This document shows, one piece after another, positions 8,543-17,417 of a stretch of DNA of 64,000 bases. Origin of the DNA: an uncultured virus (IMG/VR IMGVR_UViG_3300022923_001281). Lineage: Duplodnaviria > Heunggongvirae > Uroviricota > Caudoviricetes. Below the pieces are notes generated by a model, which was given only the letters and a program-made list of their open reading frames with translations, did not search any database and had not been told where the DNA came from. The translations under genes and the position numbers were made by a program. The stretch lies in the IMG/VR virus record IMGVR_UViG_3300022923_001281; one strand, given 5' to 3'. Each line of letters starts with the position of its first letter. The stretch's first letter is position 1.

Positions 8543-8618
8543 GCCCCTATAGCTCAGCTGGTAGAGCAACTGATTTGTAATCAGTAGGTCCGCGGTTCGA
8601 GTCCGTGTGGGGGCACCA
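8543..8618 (+). tRNA. tRNA-Thr(TGT)
   Basis: Canonical 76-nt cloverleaf, CTGA-TT-TGT-AA-TCAG, encoded CCA; TATAAATA at 8527-8534 upstream. Confidence 0.95.
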
Positions 8619-8630
8619 TTAGGAGGACAA

Positions 8631-9227
8631 ATGTCATTATATATCAATCGTACTGCTACTCAAAAAGGATTAACCTTTGTCCACATTCCAAAGTGTGCTG
8701 GGTCTAGCATAAAATATGCTTTGAAAGAAGCATTTCCTGAAGCAGTTGATACAAATTTTCATCACAACATTGGAAACAAAAATTTAAAAACATACTGGTC
8801 GTTTGCTGTGTTTAGAGACCCAATACAACGTGCTCTAAGTATGTATAACGAAGTATTTAACGTTTTATCAAGTCGTCCAAAAACATTAGAAAAAATTACA
8901 AAACTTTCAGCAAACGATATATACGACAATATTACGTTTGATATATTTGTACAACAATGGTTTAATCAATCAATAAATGGTATTAAACCTAGCAAAGAAC
9001 AGGTAAGATACATTAGCAATGACAGTGGAATAGTAGTAGATAAAGTTATTCCGTTTCATAAACTTACTGAACAATGGGCTGAAATTGAGGATTTTTGTAA
9101 AAAAGACATTCCTCTGCCAAAATTACGTGTTGGAAAATTTAAAACAATCAAAATGGAAGATACAACAAAGACTATACTTGAACAGTACTATGCTAAAGAT
9201 ATTCAATACTGGAACACAATAAAATAA
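8631..9227 (+). CDS. sulfotransferase family protein
   Basis: FVHIPKCAGSS (5'-PSB loop), FRDPIQRALS (3'-PB), C-terminal YYAKD; AGGAGG SD. Confidence 0.85.
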   Translation: MSLYINRTATQKGLTFVHIPKCAGSSIKYALKEAFPEAVDTNFHHNIGNKNLKTYWSFAVFRDPIQRALSMYNEVFNVLSSRPKTLEKITKLSANDIYDNITFDIFVQQWFNQSINGIKPSKEQVRYISNDSGIVVDKVIPFHKLTEQWAEIEDFCKKDIPLPKLRVGKFKTIKMEDTTKTILEQYYAKDIQYWNTIK

Positions 9228-9230
9228 CTT

Positions 9231-10733
9231 ATGCGGCACATCATAATATTCAATCAAAGTATAATGGGAAGAAGAAGCAGCGGAGCATACAAGGCTGCGG
9301 AAAGTTTTCGTGACCGTGGATTTGATACAGAAATTGTAGAATTTTTAGAACATTGGAACTTTGAAGATTTAAAAAGTTATCTAAGAAAAATAATTCATCA
9401 CGATACTGTTGGTTTTGGATTTAGTTATACATGGATGACTAGCGGTAAAGTCAGAGAACTTACAAGTTGGCTACAAAATAATTATCCAGGTAGAAAATAC
9501 TTTGCTGGAGGCCAACAACCTTTTCAAGAATACGAAGGATTCGAATTAGTTTGTACAGGATTTTTTGAAAAGGCTGCTGATGATATCATCGATTATCTTT
9601 TTAATGATAAAAAAGAACCGCCAAAACACAAAATGATACACAACGGTAGAACTATGTTGATAAATGGTGATACTGACTATCCGTCTCATAGTATGCCAGA
9701 CTTGACTGTGCGTTACTCTTACAGTGATTATATATCACCACATGAAGCACTGACAATTGAGTTAAGTCGTGGTTGTAGGTTTAAATGTAAATATTGTAGC
9801 TATGCTTTTTTAGGATTGAAAAACAGCACATACAGAAACAAAGAAAATGTAAAAGCAGAATTAATTTACAACTACGAAACCTATGGAACTAAAAATTACA
9901 TTATAGCTGACCCTACTGTAAACGATGACGATGACAAGTTACGCATGTTGGGAGAGGTAGTATCGGAGTTACCCTTTGTGCCTAATTTTTCAGCATTTGT
10001 TAGAGTTGATTTAGTTGTAGTTAGACCTTACCAAATGGAACTAATGGCAAAGGCACGTATTTGGGCACATTTTTATGGTGTCGAAACCTTTCATCCAGCA
10101 GCAGCTAAAGCAGTTGGTAAAGGCATGCCGCCACAAAAAATAAAAAAATGTCTAAAAGATATGCGTAAATATTTTTTAGATCATCTTGGATTGTATAGAG
10201 GAACAATAGGATTAATTGCTGGATTACCAGGGGAAGATAAAAAAAGTTGGCAAACCACACAGCGTTGGATGAAAAAACATTGGAAAACAGAATCATGGCA
10301 TTGGTGGCCTTTAGATATAACAGATGATAGCGACAACGATAATATCAACAGCTTGTTCAGTCGTAATCCAGAAAAGTACGGTTATCGTCCTATGAAAGAC
10401 AAAAATAAAATAGATCTTATCAAACATCAGTTTTCTCAATTTGGTAAACTTACACATCATAAAGTAGACGATGAATACTTTTTTTGGCAAAATGATACCA
10501 CTGATTTCTACGAAGCAGTCTACTGGTGTAGTGAAATGTTCCAACCTGAAAATATTTTTACCTATGATGGAAATTTTTACTTAATGAATAGATTAAGTAG
10601 TGTTGATAAGTTACAAGATGCTTTAAAATTAAAACTTAACATATGGGATGGCAAAACAATAGATACATCTACAGATCCTGAATCTCATACAATTTATGTA
10701 AAACGCAAGATAGAAAGCAAGCATAACCAATGA
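9231..10733 (+). CDS. B12-binding-type radical SAM protein
   Basis: SRGCRFKCKYC (CxxxCxxC), GVETF, IAGLPGE. Confidence 0.85.
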   Translation: MRHIIIFNQSIMGRRSSGAYKAAESFRDRGFDTEIVEFLEHWNFEDLKSYLRKIIHHDTVGFGFSYTWMTSGKVRELTSWLQNNYPGRKYFAGGQQPFQEYEGFELVCTGFFEKAADDIIDYLFNDKKEPPKHKMIHNGRTMLINGDTDYPSHSMPDLTVRYSYSDYISPHEALTIELSRGCRFKCKYCSYAFLGLKNSTYRNKENVKAELIYNYETYGTKNYIIADPTVNDDDDKLRMLGEVVSELPFVPNFSAFVRVDLVVVRPYQMELMAKARIWAHFYGVETFHPAAAKAVGKGMPPQKIKKCLKDMRKYFLDHLGLYRGTIGLIAGLPGEDKKSWQTTQRWMKKHWKTESWHWWPLDITDDSDNDNINSLFSRNPEKYGYRPMKDKNKIDLIKHQFSQFGKLTHHKVDDEYFFWQNDTTDFYEAVYWCSEMFQPENIFTYDGNFYLMNRLSSVDKLQDALKLKLNIWDGKTIDTSTDPESHTIYVKRKIESKHNQ

Positions 10734-11515
10734 GAGTTGATCAAAAAACAAACATGTTTCAATTAGCTTGCTACATAGGCGGACCATTGGTGTTGATTTT
10801 TAACTTCAACGCAGCATACTTATTTGGTTCGTGGTTATTTTCATGGATAGTAGTACATGTTGGAATCAGTATGGGATTACACCGTTGTTTTTCACACAAA
10901 TCTTGGGAACCAAAAAATAAGTTTATTCTTGTGGTGTTACATTTCTTGTCTGTAATTAACACAGTTGGTCCTAGTATTCCGTGGACTGCTACACATAGAG
11001 TACATCACAAATATTCAGACACTGATAAAGATCCGCACTGTATTAAAGATTCTACTGTATGGCAAAAATTTAAATTATGGCATAATTTTGTTCCTTATCA
11101 TCATGTAAGTCCAAGGATAGTGATTGATTTACTAAGAGATCCGTATCATAAATTTTTTAACAAGTATTATTTTCATATGTTAGTTGGCTGGGGACTGTTA
11201 TTATTTGCTATTAGTCCTGACCTGTTTATGTATGGATATCTAGTAAGCACAATGTTTTGTTTACATACCATATCGTGGATTACAGTAGGTGCCCATATGT
11301 TTGGCCATAAAGATACTGACACACACGATGATTCTAAAAACACATTTATTATGGGGTTATACTCTTGGGGAGAAGGCTGGCACAACAATCATCATGCGGC
11401 GCCATGGAGTTATGCGTTTGGATGGAACCGTAAGCAACCTGACTTTGGCAAATGGTTGATTGAAAAATTAGCAAAACCTGATTCGCTTAAAGGTGTGAAT
11501 TATTATGATAAATGA
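10730..11515 (+). CDS. membrane fatty-acid desaturase (delta-9 type)
   Basis: His boxes HRCFSH, HRVHH and GEGWHNNHH; TM segments. Confidence 0.92.
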   Translation: MRVDQKTNMFQLACYIGGPLVLIFNFNAAYLFGSWLFSWIVVHVGISMGLHRCFSHKSWEPKNKFILVVLHFLSVINTVGPSIPWTATHRVHHKYSDTDKDPHCIKDSTVWQKFKLWHNFVPYHHVSPRIVIDLLRDPYHKFFNKYYFHMLVGWGLLLFAISPDLFMYGYLVSTMFCLHTISWITVGAHMFGHKDTDTHDDSKNTFIMGLYSWGEGWHNNHHAAPWSYAFGWNRKQPDFGKWLIEKLAKPDSLKGVNYYDK

Positions 11516-12149
11516 AATTGTATCTTCGGGTAGAGTAAGATTACATGTATTTGATCATGACAATGTTGAATTTGAAAAAGTAAGACAACAGTGCCTACAA
11601 GAAGATAATTGGCTACGTGAAAATTACACAAAAGATCGTTGTGTAATTGAAGATCACAAATTGTTTTGGATCGCTTACTTAGACGACAAACTTTGGCATT
11701 TCAGCGGTTTGCTTGAATTATCTCCACATGTAGCTAGAATACTCAACAGAACTTATATGTTTCCTGAATGGCGTAGTCCAAGACAAATTACATATCATCA
11801 TGATCAACTAGCTAACCATGTAATTCCATTGGTAGAACAAGTGTTAGGCTTTGAATATGATTTACTGTTTTTCAGTATGCAAAGACGCAAGCGTGGATAT
11901 CAAATTGAAAAACAACCTTGGTGGGAAAATGTTAAACGTAGTTGGATGAGCGTCACAGACAAATGGCAATCGTTTGATGATGGGCTAGTTAGAATATATC
12001 CAGACGAACAAGAAAGTTGTTATCAAAATGTGATTTATAAAAGCAATGGATATACATTAAAGGACTGGGGTCCGCGAATTATTACATATAATGAATATAT
12101 AGAAAAATTTTACAAAAAAGATGAAGATTTTTTTGTTTCTTGGCAATAA
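11505..12149 (+). CDS. hypothetical protein (possible GNAT-like fold)
   Basis: 214-aa coupled ORF; ARILNRTYMFPEWR resembles a GNAT motif A region. Confidence 0.55.
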   Translation: MINEIVSSGRVRLHVFDHDNVEFEKVRQQCLQEDNWLRENYTKDRCVIEDHKLFWIAYLDDKLWHFSGLLELSPHVARILNRTYMFPEWRSPRQITYHHDQLANHVIPLVEQVLGFEYDLLFFSMQRRKRGYQIEKQPWWENVKRSWMSVTDKWQSFDDGLVRIYPDEQESCYQNVIYKSNGYTLKDWGPRIITYNEYIEKFYKKDEDFFVSWQ

Positions 12150-12154
12150 AATGG

Positions 12155-12183
12155 TTGACAACGGTGTAATAGTTTGCTATATT
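12155..12183 (+). promoter_or_regulatory. sigma70-type promoter (extended -10) upstream of the structured RNA
   Basis: TTGACA-N17-TATATT with TGc. Confidence 0.8.
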
Positions 12184-12210
12184 ATAAACATAACAAAGAC
12201 GACGGTCCTA

Positions 12211-12402
12211 GTTAGATAGTGCAAGGAAACGATGCTTACCCAGGCATTAACTTGACTCACACGCTGTGGTGGCGCTGTAAGACTTTGGAGACAAAGCATT
12301 GCAGAAAAAGTAGGATTAACCATTCTATTGTGAGGTTCCGTGTTGTTTTGAGCCTGATGGGGCATAACGCGGTTGTTGGTAATCAGTAGTCCAACCTATC
12401 AC
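12211..12402 (+). ncRNA. large structured ncRNA, possibly manA-motif-like
   Basis: Helices seen: GATAG/CTATC, ATGCTT/AGGCAT, CTCACA/TGTGAG, CTGTAA/TTGCAG capped by CTTTG-GAGA-CAAAG, CCGTGTTGT/ATAACGCGG, GTTGG/CCAAC; no credible ORF; higher GC than flanks. Confidence 0.7.
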
Positions 12403-12403
12403 A

Positions 12404-12411
12404 TATAAATA
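12404..12411 (+). promoter_or_regulatory. T4-type late promoter TATAAATA
   Basis: Exact T4 late consensus just before the leader-peptide SD. Confidence 0.6.
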
Positions 12412-12429
12412 CAACGAAGGAATTTTAAC

Positions 12430-12492
12430 ATGTTCAAGACTAACACAATATGTATAATATGTTGGCCACCAGGAGATTGGGGTATGTCTTGA
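12430..12492 (+). CDS. putative attenuator leader peptide MFKTNTICIICWPPGDWGMS
   Basis: GAAGGA SD at 12416-12421, ATG 12430, TGA 12490-12492, followed by an intrinsic terminator. Confidence 0.65.
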   Translation: MFKTNTICIICWPPGDWGMS

Positions 12493-12520
12493 CATGACTT
12501 TATAAAAAAGTTATTTCAAC

Positions 12521-12555
12521 AGCCCCTAGCATTAAATTTGTTAGGGGCTTTTTTT
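12521..12555 (+). terminator. intrinsic terminator / attenuator
   Basis: AGCCCCTAGCA/TGTTAGGGGCT 11-bp stem followed by a T tract. Confidence 0.85.
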
Positions 12556-12557
12556 AT

Positions 12558-12633
12558 AACTACACTACACCTTACTGCAATAAGGTGTCGTTGCAGAGAC
12601 AGAGGCCTCGAAAGGGCTAAAGATAGTGTAGTT
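12558..12633 (+). ncRNA. compact multi-stem RNA with kissing loops, function unknown
   Basis: AACTACACTA/TAGTGTAGTT closing stem; CACCTTA-CTGCAA-TAAGGTG hairpin whose loop is complementary to TTGCAG (12591-12596); GCCTC-GAAA-GGGC hairpin. Confidence 0.6.
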
Positions 12634-12650
12634 TTAAAAAAAGTTTTTAA

Positions 12651-12735
12651 GCAGGTGCGCTACAGTCGGAGAGGTAGGCTGGTCTCCAAAACCAGTGCGT
12701 TAGCTGAGCGAGTTCGAATCTCGCCACCTGTGCCA
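12651..12735 (+). tRNA. tRNA-Trp(CCA), atypical long variable arm
   Basis: GCAGGTG/CACCTGT acceptor, CTGGT-CT-CCA-AA-ACCAG, 12-nt variable region, GCGAG-TTCGAAT-CTCGC, G73, CCA end. Confidence 0.85.
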
Positions 12736-12737
12736 AT

Positions 12738-12815
12738 CGGGGCTTGGGAAAGTCTGGTCAATCCGCCTGTTTTGGGAACAGGAAATCGCTGGTTCGAATC
12801 CAGCAGCCCCGACCA
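12738..12815 (+). tRNA. tRNA-Pro(TGG)
   Basis: CGGGGCT/AGCCCCG acceptor, CCTGT-TT-TGG-GA-ACAGG, encoded CCA. Confidence 0.93.
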
Positions 12816-12821
12816 AATAAT

Positions 12822-12896
12822 GCGCTTGTAGTTCAGTGGTAGAACCGTCCGCTCATAACGGATCAGTCGGGAGTTCGAATCTCTCCGGGCGCACCA
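12822..12896 (+). tRNA. tRNA with CAT anticodon (elongator Met or lysidine-type Ile2)
   Basis: G1-C72 paired and no GGG/CCC anticodon stem, so not an initiator; TCCG-CT-CAT-AA-CGGA; encoded CCA. Confidence 0.9.
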
Positions 12897-12918
12897 TATT
12901 TCCTTAATAAATATTGGC

Positions 12919-13071
12919 ATGTTCAAAGCAACCAAAGAAACTATTTGGCATCTCACATGTATAAAATGTAAAAACTGGTTCACATATGCTACAATGGAAA
13001 AAATGTGTATAGACAGGTACACGTTTCATTGTCCACATTGTGGATCAAAGGGTAAAGTTACTCCGGAGTGA
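12919..13071 (+). CDS. 50-aa zinc-ribbon protein (not in ORF track)
   Basis: MFKATKETIWHLTCIKCKNW...HCPHCGSKG; two CxxC pairs; TAAATA 5 nt upstream of the ATG. Confidence 0.7.
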   Translation: MFKATKETIWHLTCIKCKNWFTYATMEKMCIDRYTFHCPHCGSKGKVTPE

Positions 13072-13073
13072 TA

Positions 13074-14279
13074 ATGTCAAAATGTATTGTACCATGGACG
13101 CAAATTGAAATTTGCGCTACAGGATTCTGCCGCCCGTGTGCTGAATATGGAACTGATTTAAAATGGGATGACGGTAAACGAATAGATTTTAATGATAAAA
13201 ATACAACTTTAGATAAAGTTCTTAAATCAAACGACTATAAAACTTTACGTGATCAATTTAGAAATAATGAAAAACCAGAGGGCTGTAGAAAGTGCTGGAA
13301 ACTTGAAGAACAAGGATTGAAAAGTAGAAGACAGCGAGAACTAGAAGCGCATGAACAACATCTTGATTTAATCTCTACAGATGAAACAAAAATAGTTTTG
13401 TTTGACATAAAGCTAGGTAACCATTGTAATTTAAAATGTAATATTTGTAACAGCGAATACAGCAAGAAATGGGAAAAAGATGAAATGGATTGGTATGGAC
13501 AAGTCATCAATCCAAGTTACGGAAAAGACTGGTTAAGCAATCCACAGCATTGGCAGGATATAAAGAAACAATGTGACAGTTTAGAAGTTTTATATCTTAG
13601 CGGCGGCGAACCCTTTCTTACTAAACATAATGACGAACTTCTTACACACCTAATTGATATAGGTAGAGCGAAGGATGTTTGGATCAAATATCATACCAAC
13701 GGAACCTATAAACTTACTGAAAAACTTATAAATCAATTTAAGCAATTCAAACGTATACAATTGATGTACAGCATTGATGATATAGGTAGGCGTTATGAAT
13801 ATCAAAGACCTCCGGCTAAATGGCATCGGGTAGAATCAAATTTTATACATGCGTTAGAACATGGTTTTATTGATACAAAAATTTGTTATACAGTGAGTTT
13901 GTTTAATAGTCTTAGCGGACAAGAGATGGAAACGTGGTGTGCTAGTGTTGGTTTTAATTTAGATAACCTAGAAGTAAATTTTGCTAGAGATCCTATACAC
14001 TATGATTTAAGTATGCTCGGCGACGAACAAAAAACTATGTTACTAAACAAACTAGGACATGGTAAAATTGATACTGAAGTATCAAAATACATTAAAAGTT
14101 CACATCAACCCACATTTGATGAGACTGGATGGCCAGTAAAATCAAAAAAAGAACTTGACAACTTGCGTAAGTATGTTATAAGTAAGGTAGACAGTAAGAG
14201 CAACATGTCTCTTATGGATGTCAGTCCTGAAATAGAAAAAGTGGTAAATTATGATGAAAACTTGTGTATTACAACGTAA
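13074..14279 (+). CDS. radical SAM protein with N-terminal SPASM/twitch-like Cys cluster
   Basis: CNLKCNIC, SGGEPFL, YHTNGT; N-terminal C..PW...CRPC...GCRKCW. Confidence 0.85.
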   Translation: MSKCIVPWTQIEICATGFCRPCAEYGTDLKWDDGKRIDFNDKNTTLDKVLKSNDYKTLRDQFRNNEKPEGCRKCWKLEEQGLKSRRQRELEAHEQHLDLISTDETKIVLFDIKLGNHCNLKCNICNSEYSKKWEKDEMDWYGQVINPSYGKDWLSNPQHWQDIKKQCDSLEVLYLSGGEPFLTKHNDELLTHLIDIGRAKDVWIKYHTNGTYKLTEKLINQFKQFKRIQLMYSIDDIGRRYEYQRPPAKWHRVESNFIHALEHGFIDTKICYTVSLFNSLSGQEMETWCASVGFNLDNLEVNFARDPIHYDLSMLGDEQKTMLLNKLGHGKIDTEVSKYIKSSHQPTFDETGWPVKSKKELDNLRKYVISKVDSKSNMSLMDVSPEIEKVVNYDENLCITT

Positions 14280-14672
14280 CGAACGTTCCATTACTGTAGA
14301 TTTAACAACAAATGGCGCTGTATTCAACGAATACGAAATGTTAGATTTTGAAACATCTAAAGAGTTTCATGATAAAACTAAAGCAGAACAATATTTTTTG
14401 GGTTTGAAAATTAAAGGATTCAAAGAGGCACTTGCGTCATGAAGATCTACGATCTCACAGCAGAACAATGCAAAATGCTTGATCAAATGTGGCAATGTGA
14501 TAGTGCTGAAGAAATCTATGATTTTTTTCAATCACTTGACAAAGACAAATATCTCATGGCGTTGACACTTCATGAACTGATGCTACAAGAACTCCAAGAG
14601 CAGGATGAAGATCCAAGCAACAACGTTACACAGGCACGTAATATGTTGTATGATATAGGTGTTAAATGCTAG
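14251..14672 (+). CDS. two small hypothetical ORFs (14251-14442, 14439-14672)
   Basis: Coupled ORFs; possible internal promoter TTGACA at 14155. Confidence 0.55.
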
Positions 14673-14986
14673 ATGATCACGCAGCAAATCTGTTTAAGAA
14701 AAATATAAACATGATGGTGCCATGGTATCTCATGGCATCATACGCATATTACGAACAAGATGATGCTATCTTATCAGATGGCTTCTTTGACGACATGGGC
14801 AAAACCATGTTGGCAGTTTGGGATGACATTGAACACTTCCATAAAGAACATATCACTTTAGACGATTTGAAAGCAGGCACTTTCTTAGGAAAGTATCCAA
14901 GTCGTGTCAAAGATGGACTGGCAAGTTTACGTGAAGCATACTACACAAAAAGCGGAACAGTCAGAAAAAAGCCCCATATCAAGTAA
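14666..14986 (+). CDS. stand-alone protein resembling the NAD-dependent DNA ligase N-terminal (Ia) subdomain
   Basis: ASYAYYEQDDAILSDGFFD resembles the LigA YY..D.P.ISD..YD motif. Confidence 0.6.
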   Translation: MLDDHAANLFKKNINMMVPWYLMASYAYYEQDDAILSDGFFDDMGKTMLAVWDDIEHFHKEHITLDDLKAGTFLGKYPSRVKDGLASLREAYYTKSGTVRKKPHIK

Positions 14987-15024
14987 CTTTGATAAAACAA
15001 TAATATATAGTTACAGGAGGTAAC

Positions 15025-16967: not shown

Positions 16968-17417
16968 ATGAGTTACTACAGTACAAAAACATACGGGCAC
17001 AACATAGGATTGAGTGCTTGCTTTAGACAACCTAAAGCACATAGCCATTGTAAATTTTTACATGGATACAGTTTACAATTTAAATTTACATTTGCGGCAA
17101 GTGAATTAGACGAACGAAACTGGGTCGTAGACTTTGGCGGATTAAAACCACTCAAAGCATGGCTTGAAGATACATTTGATCACAAGGTTGTGCTAGATGC
17201 GGATGATCCATTTATGTATCATTTTGAAACACTTGCGCAAGCAAAACTTGCTGAGCTTACAATCCTAGATGGCGTAGGCGTAGAGAAGTTTGCTTATCAT
17301 GCTTGGAAGTTTGCTAACGATCTTGTTAAAGAAATGACAGACGGACGTTGCTGGTGCGAGTCTTGTGAATGTGCAGAGCATGGAGCCAATAGTGCCATCT
17401 ACAAAGCATTGGACTGA
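16968..17417 (+). CDS. queD: 6-carboxy-5,6,7,8-tetrahydropterin synthase (QueD/PTPS)
   Basis: HSHCKFLHGYS, WVVDFGGLK, TFDHK, E.FA motifs. Confidence 0.9.
   Translation: MSYYSTKTYGHNIGLSACFRQPKAHSHCKFLHGYSLQFKFTFAASELDERNWVVDFGGLKPLKAWLEDTFDHKVVLDADDPFMYHFETLAQAKLAELTILDGVGVEKFAYHAWKFANDLVKEMTDGRCWCESCECAEHGANSAIYKALD

Follow-up and report, generated by a model that had tools for sequence, protein, structure and literature searches.

A divergent manA RNA with a third covarying loop contact in an uncultured phage, upstream of a probable Trp-sensing attenuator of a tRNA gene

The window, by which we mean the whole stretch of 64,000 nucleotides analysed here, carries at 12190-12402 on the plus strand a structured RNA that, judged from its sequence, is almost certainly manA. 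The family itself is known, and what is new is a divergent and movable form of it with a third covarying loop contact. We lean towards a reading in which this manA is an early, stand-alone RNA whose copies would pair with each other into an oligomeric scaffold or decoy, with a separate Trp attenuator downstream of it. An orphan “riboswitch candidate” since 2010, manA is bracketed by a promoter and a terminator in relatives of the window RNA, and this argues for an RNA gene in the subgroup to which the window RNA belongs.

Identity and setting of the RNA

The Rfam model of manA (RF01745) matches 12195-12405 on the plus strand over its full length (model positions 1-192), with 58.0 bits against a cut-off of 55.2 (E 3.5e-12), and the guess of manA made in the first-pass annotation is borne out by this match; covariation and metatranscriptome contigs support the same feature. 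The margin over the cut-off is only 2.8 bits. Seven of eight close but non-identical loci fall below the cut-off and one lies above it, and canonical cyanophage-type copies score 169-187 bits (20/20 tested). By these scores the window RNA is a member of a divergent manA subgroup, placed at the edge of the Rfam model. Other families that had been suggested for checking, raiA, GOLLD and ROOL, gave no match at cut-off in the window, nor any up to E 10 in 11900-13100. Pattern scans brought together 48 distinct full-length RNAs of the subgroup, 57-97% identical to the window RNA; a loose search pattern was rejected as mostly chance, a second manA hallmark being present in 1 of 120 loci.

All parts of the helix architecture required for manA are present, that is the 5' hairpin, the closing helix, P3, the four-way junction, P8 and P9. 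With manA as published (RF01745, Weinberg et al. 2010, PMC2864571) the window RNA shares the order of the helices, the GACG 5' hairpin, the GUGGUG and ACCA loops, the GGUA...UCC hairpin and both annotated pseudoknots (L5-L7 and L8-L9). It is 54% identical to one canonical copy, and differs from canonical manA in the purine-rich strand before P3, in an apical P8 stem that is reduced to a large loop, and in having L3-L8 as a third covarying contact, which is missing from the structure lines of 2010. It also differs in its context: typical manA precedes sugar, nucleotide, chaperone or photosynthesis genes as part of their 5' UTR, a setting on which the cis-regulatory label rests, whereas the window RNA is not so placed. 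Rfam classes the family as ‘Cis-reg’, and the accessible text of the 2010 paper describes a probable cis-regulatory RNA or riboswitch (PMC2864571); tRNA neighbours are occasional according to the accessible text of a further report (PMC10832533).

The region had been called free of open reading frames, which is not true to the letter. Frames of 56-62 aa do overlap the RNA on both strands; indels of 1 nt in relatives, however, speak against their being genes.

The window makes up the first 64 kb of a 116-kb virus record and has a G+C content of 36%. As the record is estimated to be 30% complete, the phage would be a jumbo phage. A clamp-loader and a tail-fibre match speak for a T4-like phage, as does the gp23 gene of a close relative; gp23 was looked for in the window phage's own partial record and is absent from it. 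BLAST of 12150-12650 against cultured phages gave no match, and the best cultured matches of one neighbouring protein are at 35% identity. There are five tRNA genes in the window. Genes of a metabolic type surround the block of manA and tRNA genes (8607-14279), with a QueE-like radical SAM match at 13068-14279 and, recognised by eye, a second radical-SAM-like ORF at 9231-10733 and a His-box desaturase-like ORF at 10730-11515; a QueD-like gene lies at 16968-17417. A 50-codon ORF with two Cys-x2-Cys motifs and no PHROG match stands 3' of the tRNA block (12919-13071), and a homolog of it is found upstream of the attenuator leader in locus L457.

Fold of the RNA

The first-pass annotation had proposed a structured RNA of at least seven helices, and nine helices are indeed seen, with covariation in relatives. 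Their 50 nested pairs are 98.5% paired in 20 RNAs of the window's architecture, and two-sided changes occur in 25 of the 50, a number reached by 0/500 shuffles; controls with slid partners were 34-45% paired. RNAalifold, as an independent prediction, gave 47 pairs, 22 of them with two-sided change. The folding energy of the single sequence, tried as proof of structure, is weak when taken alone and was not decisive (z -1.17 for the span of the earlier annotation, 12155-12402, and z -2.26 for 12190-12405).

All elements of the fold lie on the plus strand. It opens with P1 (12191..12214), the 5' hairpin with a GACG tetraloop and an inner stem at 12198-12207, which shows two-sided change in 3/3 pairs of P1. 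P2 (12215..12400), formed by GATAG at 12215-19 and CTATC at 12396-400, closes the main multiloop and is 100% paired, with two-sided change in 2/5 pairs; the helix had been noted before as a terminal pair, and it is there, but it is not terminal, the 5' hairpin at 12191-12214 preceding it. The hairpin P3 (12231..12248) carries in its loop L3 the letters CCCA (12239-42). It is followed by a four-way junction (12256..12334), in which P4 (12256-61/12329-34) is the CTCACA/TGTGAG helix that had been picked out from the single sequence and which covaries in relatives. Within the junction lie the P5 loop GUGGUG (12266-71), the P6 hairpin with the GAGA tetraloop (12288-91), likewise seen before and kept as GNRA in 20/20 RNAs, and the P7 loop UUAACCA (12316-22). 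P8 (12338..12372) has a large loop, with CUGAU (12354-58) in its 5' half and UGGG (12358-61) in its 3' half, and P9 (12375..12395) has AUCAG (12382-86) in its loop L9.

Contacts between loops

Two pseudoknots had been put forward. One of them, UGGU (12267-70) with ACCA (12319-22), is real and conserved; it is the known manA contact L5-L7, SS_cons_1 of the 2010 alignment, and changes on both sides, to UAGU/ACUA, in 13 of the 39 RNAs that are of the window's type, with the contact changed beside a G-U pair in 4 more of the 39. It shows no excess over permuted partners, because the loop letters vary little, and in the 39-RNA set the permutation figure is unreliable, since in 8 rows the wrong L7 segment was taken and 1 row lacks it. 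The other, TTACC/GGTAA (12236-40/12378-82), did not survive: it has no two-sided change, permuted partners do as well in 7663/10000 cases, at least 4 bp can form in only 12/39 RNAs, and the GG of the putative partner belongs to helix P9.

The contact L8-L9, CUGAU/AUCAG in the window RNA and SS_cons_2 of the 2010 alignment, has at least 4 bp in 37/39 RNAs and reads AGGAU/AUCCU, GUGG/UCAC and GGUA/UACC in relatives; matches of 4-6 bp are present in 53/53 canonical-type manA copies. L3-L8, that is CCCA (12239-42) with UGGG (12358-61), stands in neither pseudoknot line of 2010. It has at least 4 bp in 38/39 RNAs, with ACAUA/UAUGU, GCAGA/UCUGU and GUAGA/UCUAC in relatives. When partners were exchanged among distinct combinations, a procedure that is free of any alignment, the observed mean was reached by permuted partners in 0/10000 cases for L3-L8 and 19/10000 for L8-L9 across 48 RNAs, and in 5/10000 and 77/10000, respectively, across the 39 of the window's type. 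The control pairings L3-L9 and L3 with the 5' half of L8 gave no excess over permuted partners. Cells of the loop contacts with two-sided change number 34, against 15.3 when shuffled (0/500), in a fixed-column count that mis-registers 6 RNAs with a one-base shift, and it is the alignment-free tests that carry the point. Shuffles and permutations ignore relatedness, yet several different sets of letters arose. Registers are less clear in the distant clade with a GUGGUA loop, where GGUGA and the 5' half of L8 are both still open to L3 as partners.

The letters of the loops change freely while the match is kept, which argues that the loops address other manA copies and not an outside nucleic acid. 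Covariation as such cannot separate contacts within one molecule from contacts between molecules.

Promoter and RNA-library cover

A sigma70-type promoter (TTGACA-17-TG-TATATT, 12155..12183, plus strand) agrees with the consensus at 11/12 positions and would place the start of transcription near 12190. Of the 16 sites in 11000-15000 it scores highest, though their count is meaningless alone since 15.4 sites are expected there by chance. A site of at least 9/12 is kept at the same distance in 32/49 subgroup RNAs and absent in 17/49. The extended -10 promoter that the first-pass annotation gave to the RNA is borne out.

Twelve runs recorded as RNA contain part of 11900-13000, and those that are labelled are salt-marsh metatranscriptomes. 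In eight of these RNA runs, contigs lie on the manA body at a depth of 14-67 in five, low-depth pieces (2-4) are spread across the region in two, and run X14 has no contig on manA. The runs were chosen for containing the 11900-13000 stretch and contigs give no strand, ends or levels; the contigs show the presence of the manA stretch in RNA libraries and nothing more, and gaps in their cover were given no weight. Contigs in four runs start at 12210-12212, in the 3' strand of P1 and about 21 nt past the predicted start, and in two of the four a sequencing adapter is joined at this very place, which may be processing (removal of the 5' hairpin) or an effect of the libraries. RNA contigs in two runs continue beyond the end of manA to 12482 and 12491, inside the leader described below, and a discrete 3' end of manA is thus not apparent in the window phage.

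Arrangement of manA in relatives

All seven relatives at 92-97% identity have a promoter, a terminator starting 19-23 nt past P2, and no tRNA behind, which argues that manA is movable, stands alone and is probably not the leader of a tRNA transcript; one close relative is found just behind the gp23 capsid gene. The first-pass annotation had the RNA heading the tRNA locus. It does lie upstream of the tRNA genes, but three elements separate it from tRNA-Trp at 12651, namely a leader ORF, the terminator at 12521-12557 and another folded RNA, and the link is not a property of the RNA, as the seven closest relatives are tRNA-less and the tRNA module occurs without manA in 57/61 cases. We hold it very probable that manA is independent of the tRNA control. 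A literature search, covering few subscription papers, found none that calls manA a stand-alone gene.

The stand-alone arrangement is common, not universal, and other subgroup RNAs are promoterless and lie inside longer transcribed regions. A terminator follows within 90 nt in 23/46 subgroup RNAs, one of these being a false call on a tRNA arm. The count of a tRNA behind (1/49 subgroup RNAs) was made with a 300-nt clip that left out even the window's own tRNA-Trp. Among manA copies of the canonical type, a promoter-like site is present in 42/52, and in 30/53 the closing helix runs straight into a stretch of U.

The downstream module

Behind manA, all on the plus strand, stand TATAAATA (12404..12411), a ribosome-binding site (12416-21) and a 20-codon leader ORF (12430-12492) with Trp at codon 12 (12463-65, followed by Pro-Pro) and at codon 17. 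TATAAATA, which we liken to the T4 late promoter consensus, could be a T4-type late promoter or a remnant of a former promoter of the leader; the 116-kb record has 6 copies on the plus strand and 0 on the minus strand. A predicted antiterminator (12479..12526) would pair GGGGU (12479-83) with GCCCC (12522-26), enclosing a hairpin (12495-12513) that is invariant, and overlaps the start of an intrinsic terminator (12521..12557) with an 11-bp stem and a U run. Then follow an optional spacer RNA (12559..12632) and the genes for tRNA-Trp(CCA) at 12651-12735, tRNA-Pro(TGG) at 12738-12815 and a tRNA with a CAT anticodon at 12822-12896.

Homologous modules were found with a pattern that fixed the hairpin and the C run of the terminator only; its 107 viral matches gave 68 distinct modules, 63 of them with the terminator, and 61 complete ones after 5/68 terminator-less and 2 truncated modules were left out. 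The homologs come from related phages and are not independent trials. Trp is found at codon 10-12 in 61/61 leaders and in 0/61 for each other frame, among 46 distinct peptides, some leaders even changing frame after the Trp. The first gene behind is tRNA-Trp(CCA) in 59/61 according to ARAGORN, and by eye the remaining two have a tRNA-Trp as well, one that the program missed and one that is cut off. None of 33 cellular matches of the pattern has a tRNA. A second pattern, in which both runs were free, gave 151 distinct modules from viral and metagenome contigs, less 35 terminator-less and 12 truncated ones, i.e. 104 complete; Trp lies within the first 14 codons in 103/104, the exception having an earlier ATG in the same frame, tRNA-Trp comes first in 101/104, and the C run shows only C-to-U changes.

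From this anatomy and from folding, the module is probably a Trp-sensing, trpL-like attenuator that gates the tRNA-Trp gene. Host RNA polymerase would make a transcript of about 365 nt, running from manA through the leader as far as the terminator. Once at the stop codon of the leader, a ribosome would block the G run, and the terminator would form; a ribosome held at the Trp codon would leave the G run free to trap the C run of the terminator, and transcription would read through into tRNA-Trp. With the ribosome modelled at the Trp codon the C run is trapped by the G run in 59/61 modules, and with the ribosome at the stop in 0/61, as computed by masked folding, with an assumed mask length, before the 3' arm of the terminator is made. 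With no ribosome the C run is trapped in 59/61 (0.51 for the module of the window itself). At equilibrium the complete terminator is favoured in 61/61, and the switch must therefore be kinetic. The antiterminator is 95.7% paired and shows no covariation.

Attenuators of the trpL type have a short leader ORF with control codons and an overlapping antiterminator and terminator. The window module shares with them a leader ORF with a ribosome-binding site, a conserved control codon, a predicted antiterminator that overlaps an intrinsic terminator, and a spacing that suits the footprint of a stalled ribosome. It differs in being carried by a phage and in controlling a tRNA gene rather than biosynthetic enzymes, and it is no trp-operon leader. 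Whereas trpL has tandem Trp codons, in leaders of the window's type the control position is mostly taken by one Trp only (Trp-Trp in 1/61), and whereas trpL terminates when it is untranslated, modules of the window's type are predicted to read through. The ilvB uORF is another example of a ribosome-mediated attenuator (PMC11109978). The trpB motif (RF04312), described as a hairpin and terminator with a possible attenuator role, matches the leader and terminator weakly (26.4 bits and E 0.36, far below its cut-off of 59); it belongs to 5' UTRs of Firmicutes and Fusobacteria, and in the window it is probably the terminator alone that matches. Weak matches at 12417-12565 to this motif, L10 leader, Spot 42 and PyrR, all below cut-off, were set aside as terminator look-alikes.

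The attenuator bears on why phages carry tRNA genes and how these are dosed. If true, the coupling of a Trp codon to a tRNA-Trp gene would let tRNA supply feed back directly on the gene and would counter tRNA depletion, and of this our literature search found no description for any tRNA gene. The search, which covered few subscription papers, likewise found none on attenuation of phage tRNA genes.

The leader might also sense translation trouble, or the status of EF-P, by arrest at Trp-Pro-Pro and not the supply of charged tRNA-Trp. Trp-Pro is indeed present in 56/61 leaders and Trp-Pro-Pro in 45/61, WPPP is a known arrest peptide of E. coli according to the accessible text of PMC11669330, and in folding an untranslated leader reads through as well. 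Trp is, however, kept in 61/61 leaders and Pro-Pro is not, the first gene is tRNA-Trp, and Pro-Pro does not predict a tRNA-Pro (p = 1.0), whereas tRNA-Cys occurs only behind leaders that contain Cys (21/38 vs 0/9, p = 0.0025, uncorrected for relatedness). We find such an arrest unlikely as the signal, and prefer the sensing of Trp-tRNA supply. Among attenuator loci L416-L521, the Cys codon of the leaders linked to tRNA-Cys lies near the Trp.

The spacer RNA has no Rfam match and folds as a four-way junction with two complementary loops (CUGC/GCAG). In 17 RNAs its 23 pairs are 100% paired, with two-sided change in 5 of them and in none of the loop-contact columns counted; in the relative L442 both partners have changed where the loop contact has its edge, and L418 and L419 have a different insert instead of the spacer RNA, with the same closing stem.

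What manA may do

The statement that manA has no known function still holds in the biological sense. A 2026 preprint (bioRxiv 10.64898/2026.07.01.735769, Ren et al.) gives no biological function in its main text, which reports that five manA variants self-assemble into octamers, decamers or a 60-mer cage, of which the last two have pentamers as building blocks as seen by cryo-EM, with assemblies obtained in vitro at about 3 mg/mL RNA. As described there, variant A0F1 (60-mer) has intermolecular L5-L7' together with L8-L9', and variant pho34_A767 (decamer) has intermolecular L5-L7' and L3-L8' and an L6 GNRA contact. If the loops are numbered alike, candidates for all four interfaces are present in the window RNA. 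L8-L9' and L3-L8' occur in different variants in the main text of the preprint, whereas in the window RNA the one loop L8 matches both L9 and L3, and this double use predicts a set of interfaces that is not described there in one variant. The covarying loop pairs are thus natural variants for testing whether evolution conserves the RNA-only cages seen by cryo-EM.

In the reading that we favour, the promoter sequence of the host sigma70 type would drive manA early as a self-contained RNA, and L5-L7, L8-L9 and L3-L8 would pair between copies into closed, pentamer-based oligomers of RNA only, as the preprint suggests. We think it likely that the contacts form between copies in the cell. Such an oligomer could serve as a stable, multivalent scaffold or decoy for a partner that can only be guessed at, and this role, taken by itself, is speculative and rather unlikely. 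Only as a tentative proposal do we combine the two modules, in that a single early transcript might supply a self-specific cage, in which L8 clasps two loops, and an attenuator that senses a shortage of charged tRNA-Trp.

It could instead be that manA stands alone while its loop contacts are intramolecular, giving a compact monomer, for example one that binds a protein or resists nucleases, and that the cages are an effect of the test tube. Covariation fits either geometry, L5-L7 and L8-L9 were drawn as pseudoknots in the 2010 alignment, and the preprint, in the parts accessible, worked at high concentrations of RNA and has deposited models of the monomer for two variants. Against this, the same source resolved the contacts as intermolecular in two variants and found closed oligomers in all five, and P8 lies next to P9 but differs greatly from it in length, which would make their contact in cis awkward. 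We therefore judge an intramolecular arrangement to be unlikely, and keep to contacts between copies.

Less likely still is a cis-acting leader or riboswitch that controls read-through into the leader and the tRNA block. It would agree with the ‘Cis-reg’ class and the probable riboswitch of 2010, with the RNA contigs that cross from manA into the leader, and with the place of 18/53 canonical-type copies before one gene family, whose products start similarly (Ser/Phe-Ala-Leu-Lys-Lys). On the other hand, termination right after the RNA in the 7/7 closest relatives speaks against it, manA and the leader fold separately in the joint minimum-energy structure, and manA was not seen to pair alternatively with the terminator. 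manA precedes the attenuator in 4/61 modules, as different variants, which would suit a leader, but the attenuator does without it in the rest; 54/61 modules carry their own promoter-like site within 80 nt, and the two are in our view independent modules.

Phage phi29 has a prohead RNA ring, and the pentamer could by analogy be a part of virion assembly that binds the five-fold vertex of the capsid. The pentameric building block held by kissing loops, as in the accessible part of the preprint, and the relative of 97% identity about 0.4 kb behind gp23 would fit, but the conserved promoter is of the host sigma70 type and not a late type, and the manA module moves to unrelated places, the window locus included, so that such a role is very improbable. 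To our knowledge no RNA is required in packaging of the T4 type.

The T-box antiterminator bulge captures the NCCA 3' end of tRNA, and a similar capture by the UGGU loop, which would explain the tRNA neighbourhood and for which L5 is complementary to the ACCA end with tRNA genes 250 nt downstream, can hardly be right, since most relatives have no tRNA nearby, roughly half of the 39 RNAs have UAG in L5, with a matching change of L7 in 17, and UAGU cannot pair with CCA.

Some arrangements around manA in other phages may be recorded here. The canonical-type copies that precede one conserved gene (18/53, loci L136-L164) do so before a gene that may be gp32-like. In the close relatives L006 (1627-1699) and L011 (1622-1691) the manA terminator is followed by a TAAATA site with the Rfam freshwater-2 motif and then by a conserved gene, and in L324 (about 1000-1130) manA is cut after P6 and fused to a TAAATA/freshwater-2-like region, its 3' half apparently deleted. 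In the flanks of the GUGGUA-loop clade (L297, L305, L308, L313, L325, L334 and L405) the promoter is often missing and small hairpin modules recur, which suggests arrays of non-coding RNAs.
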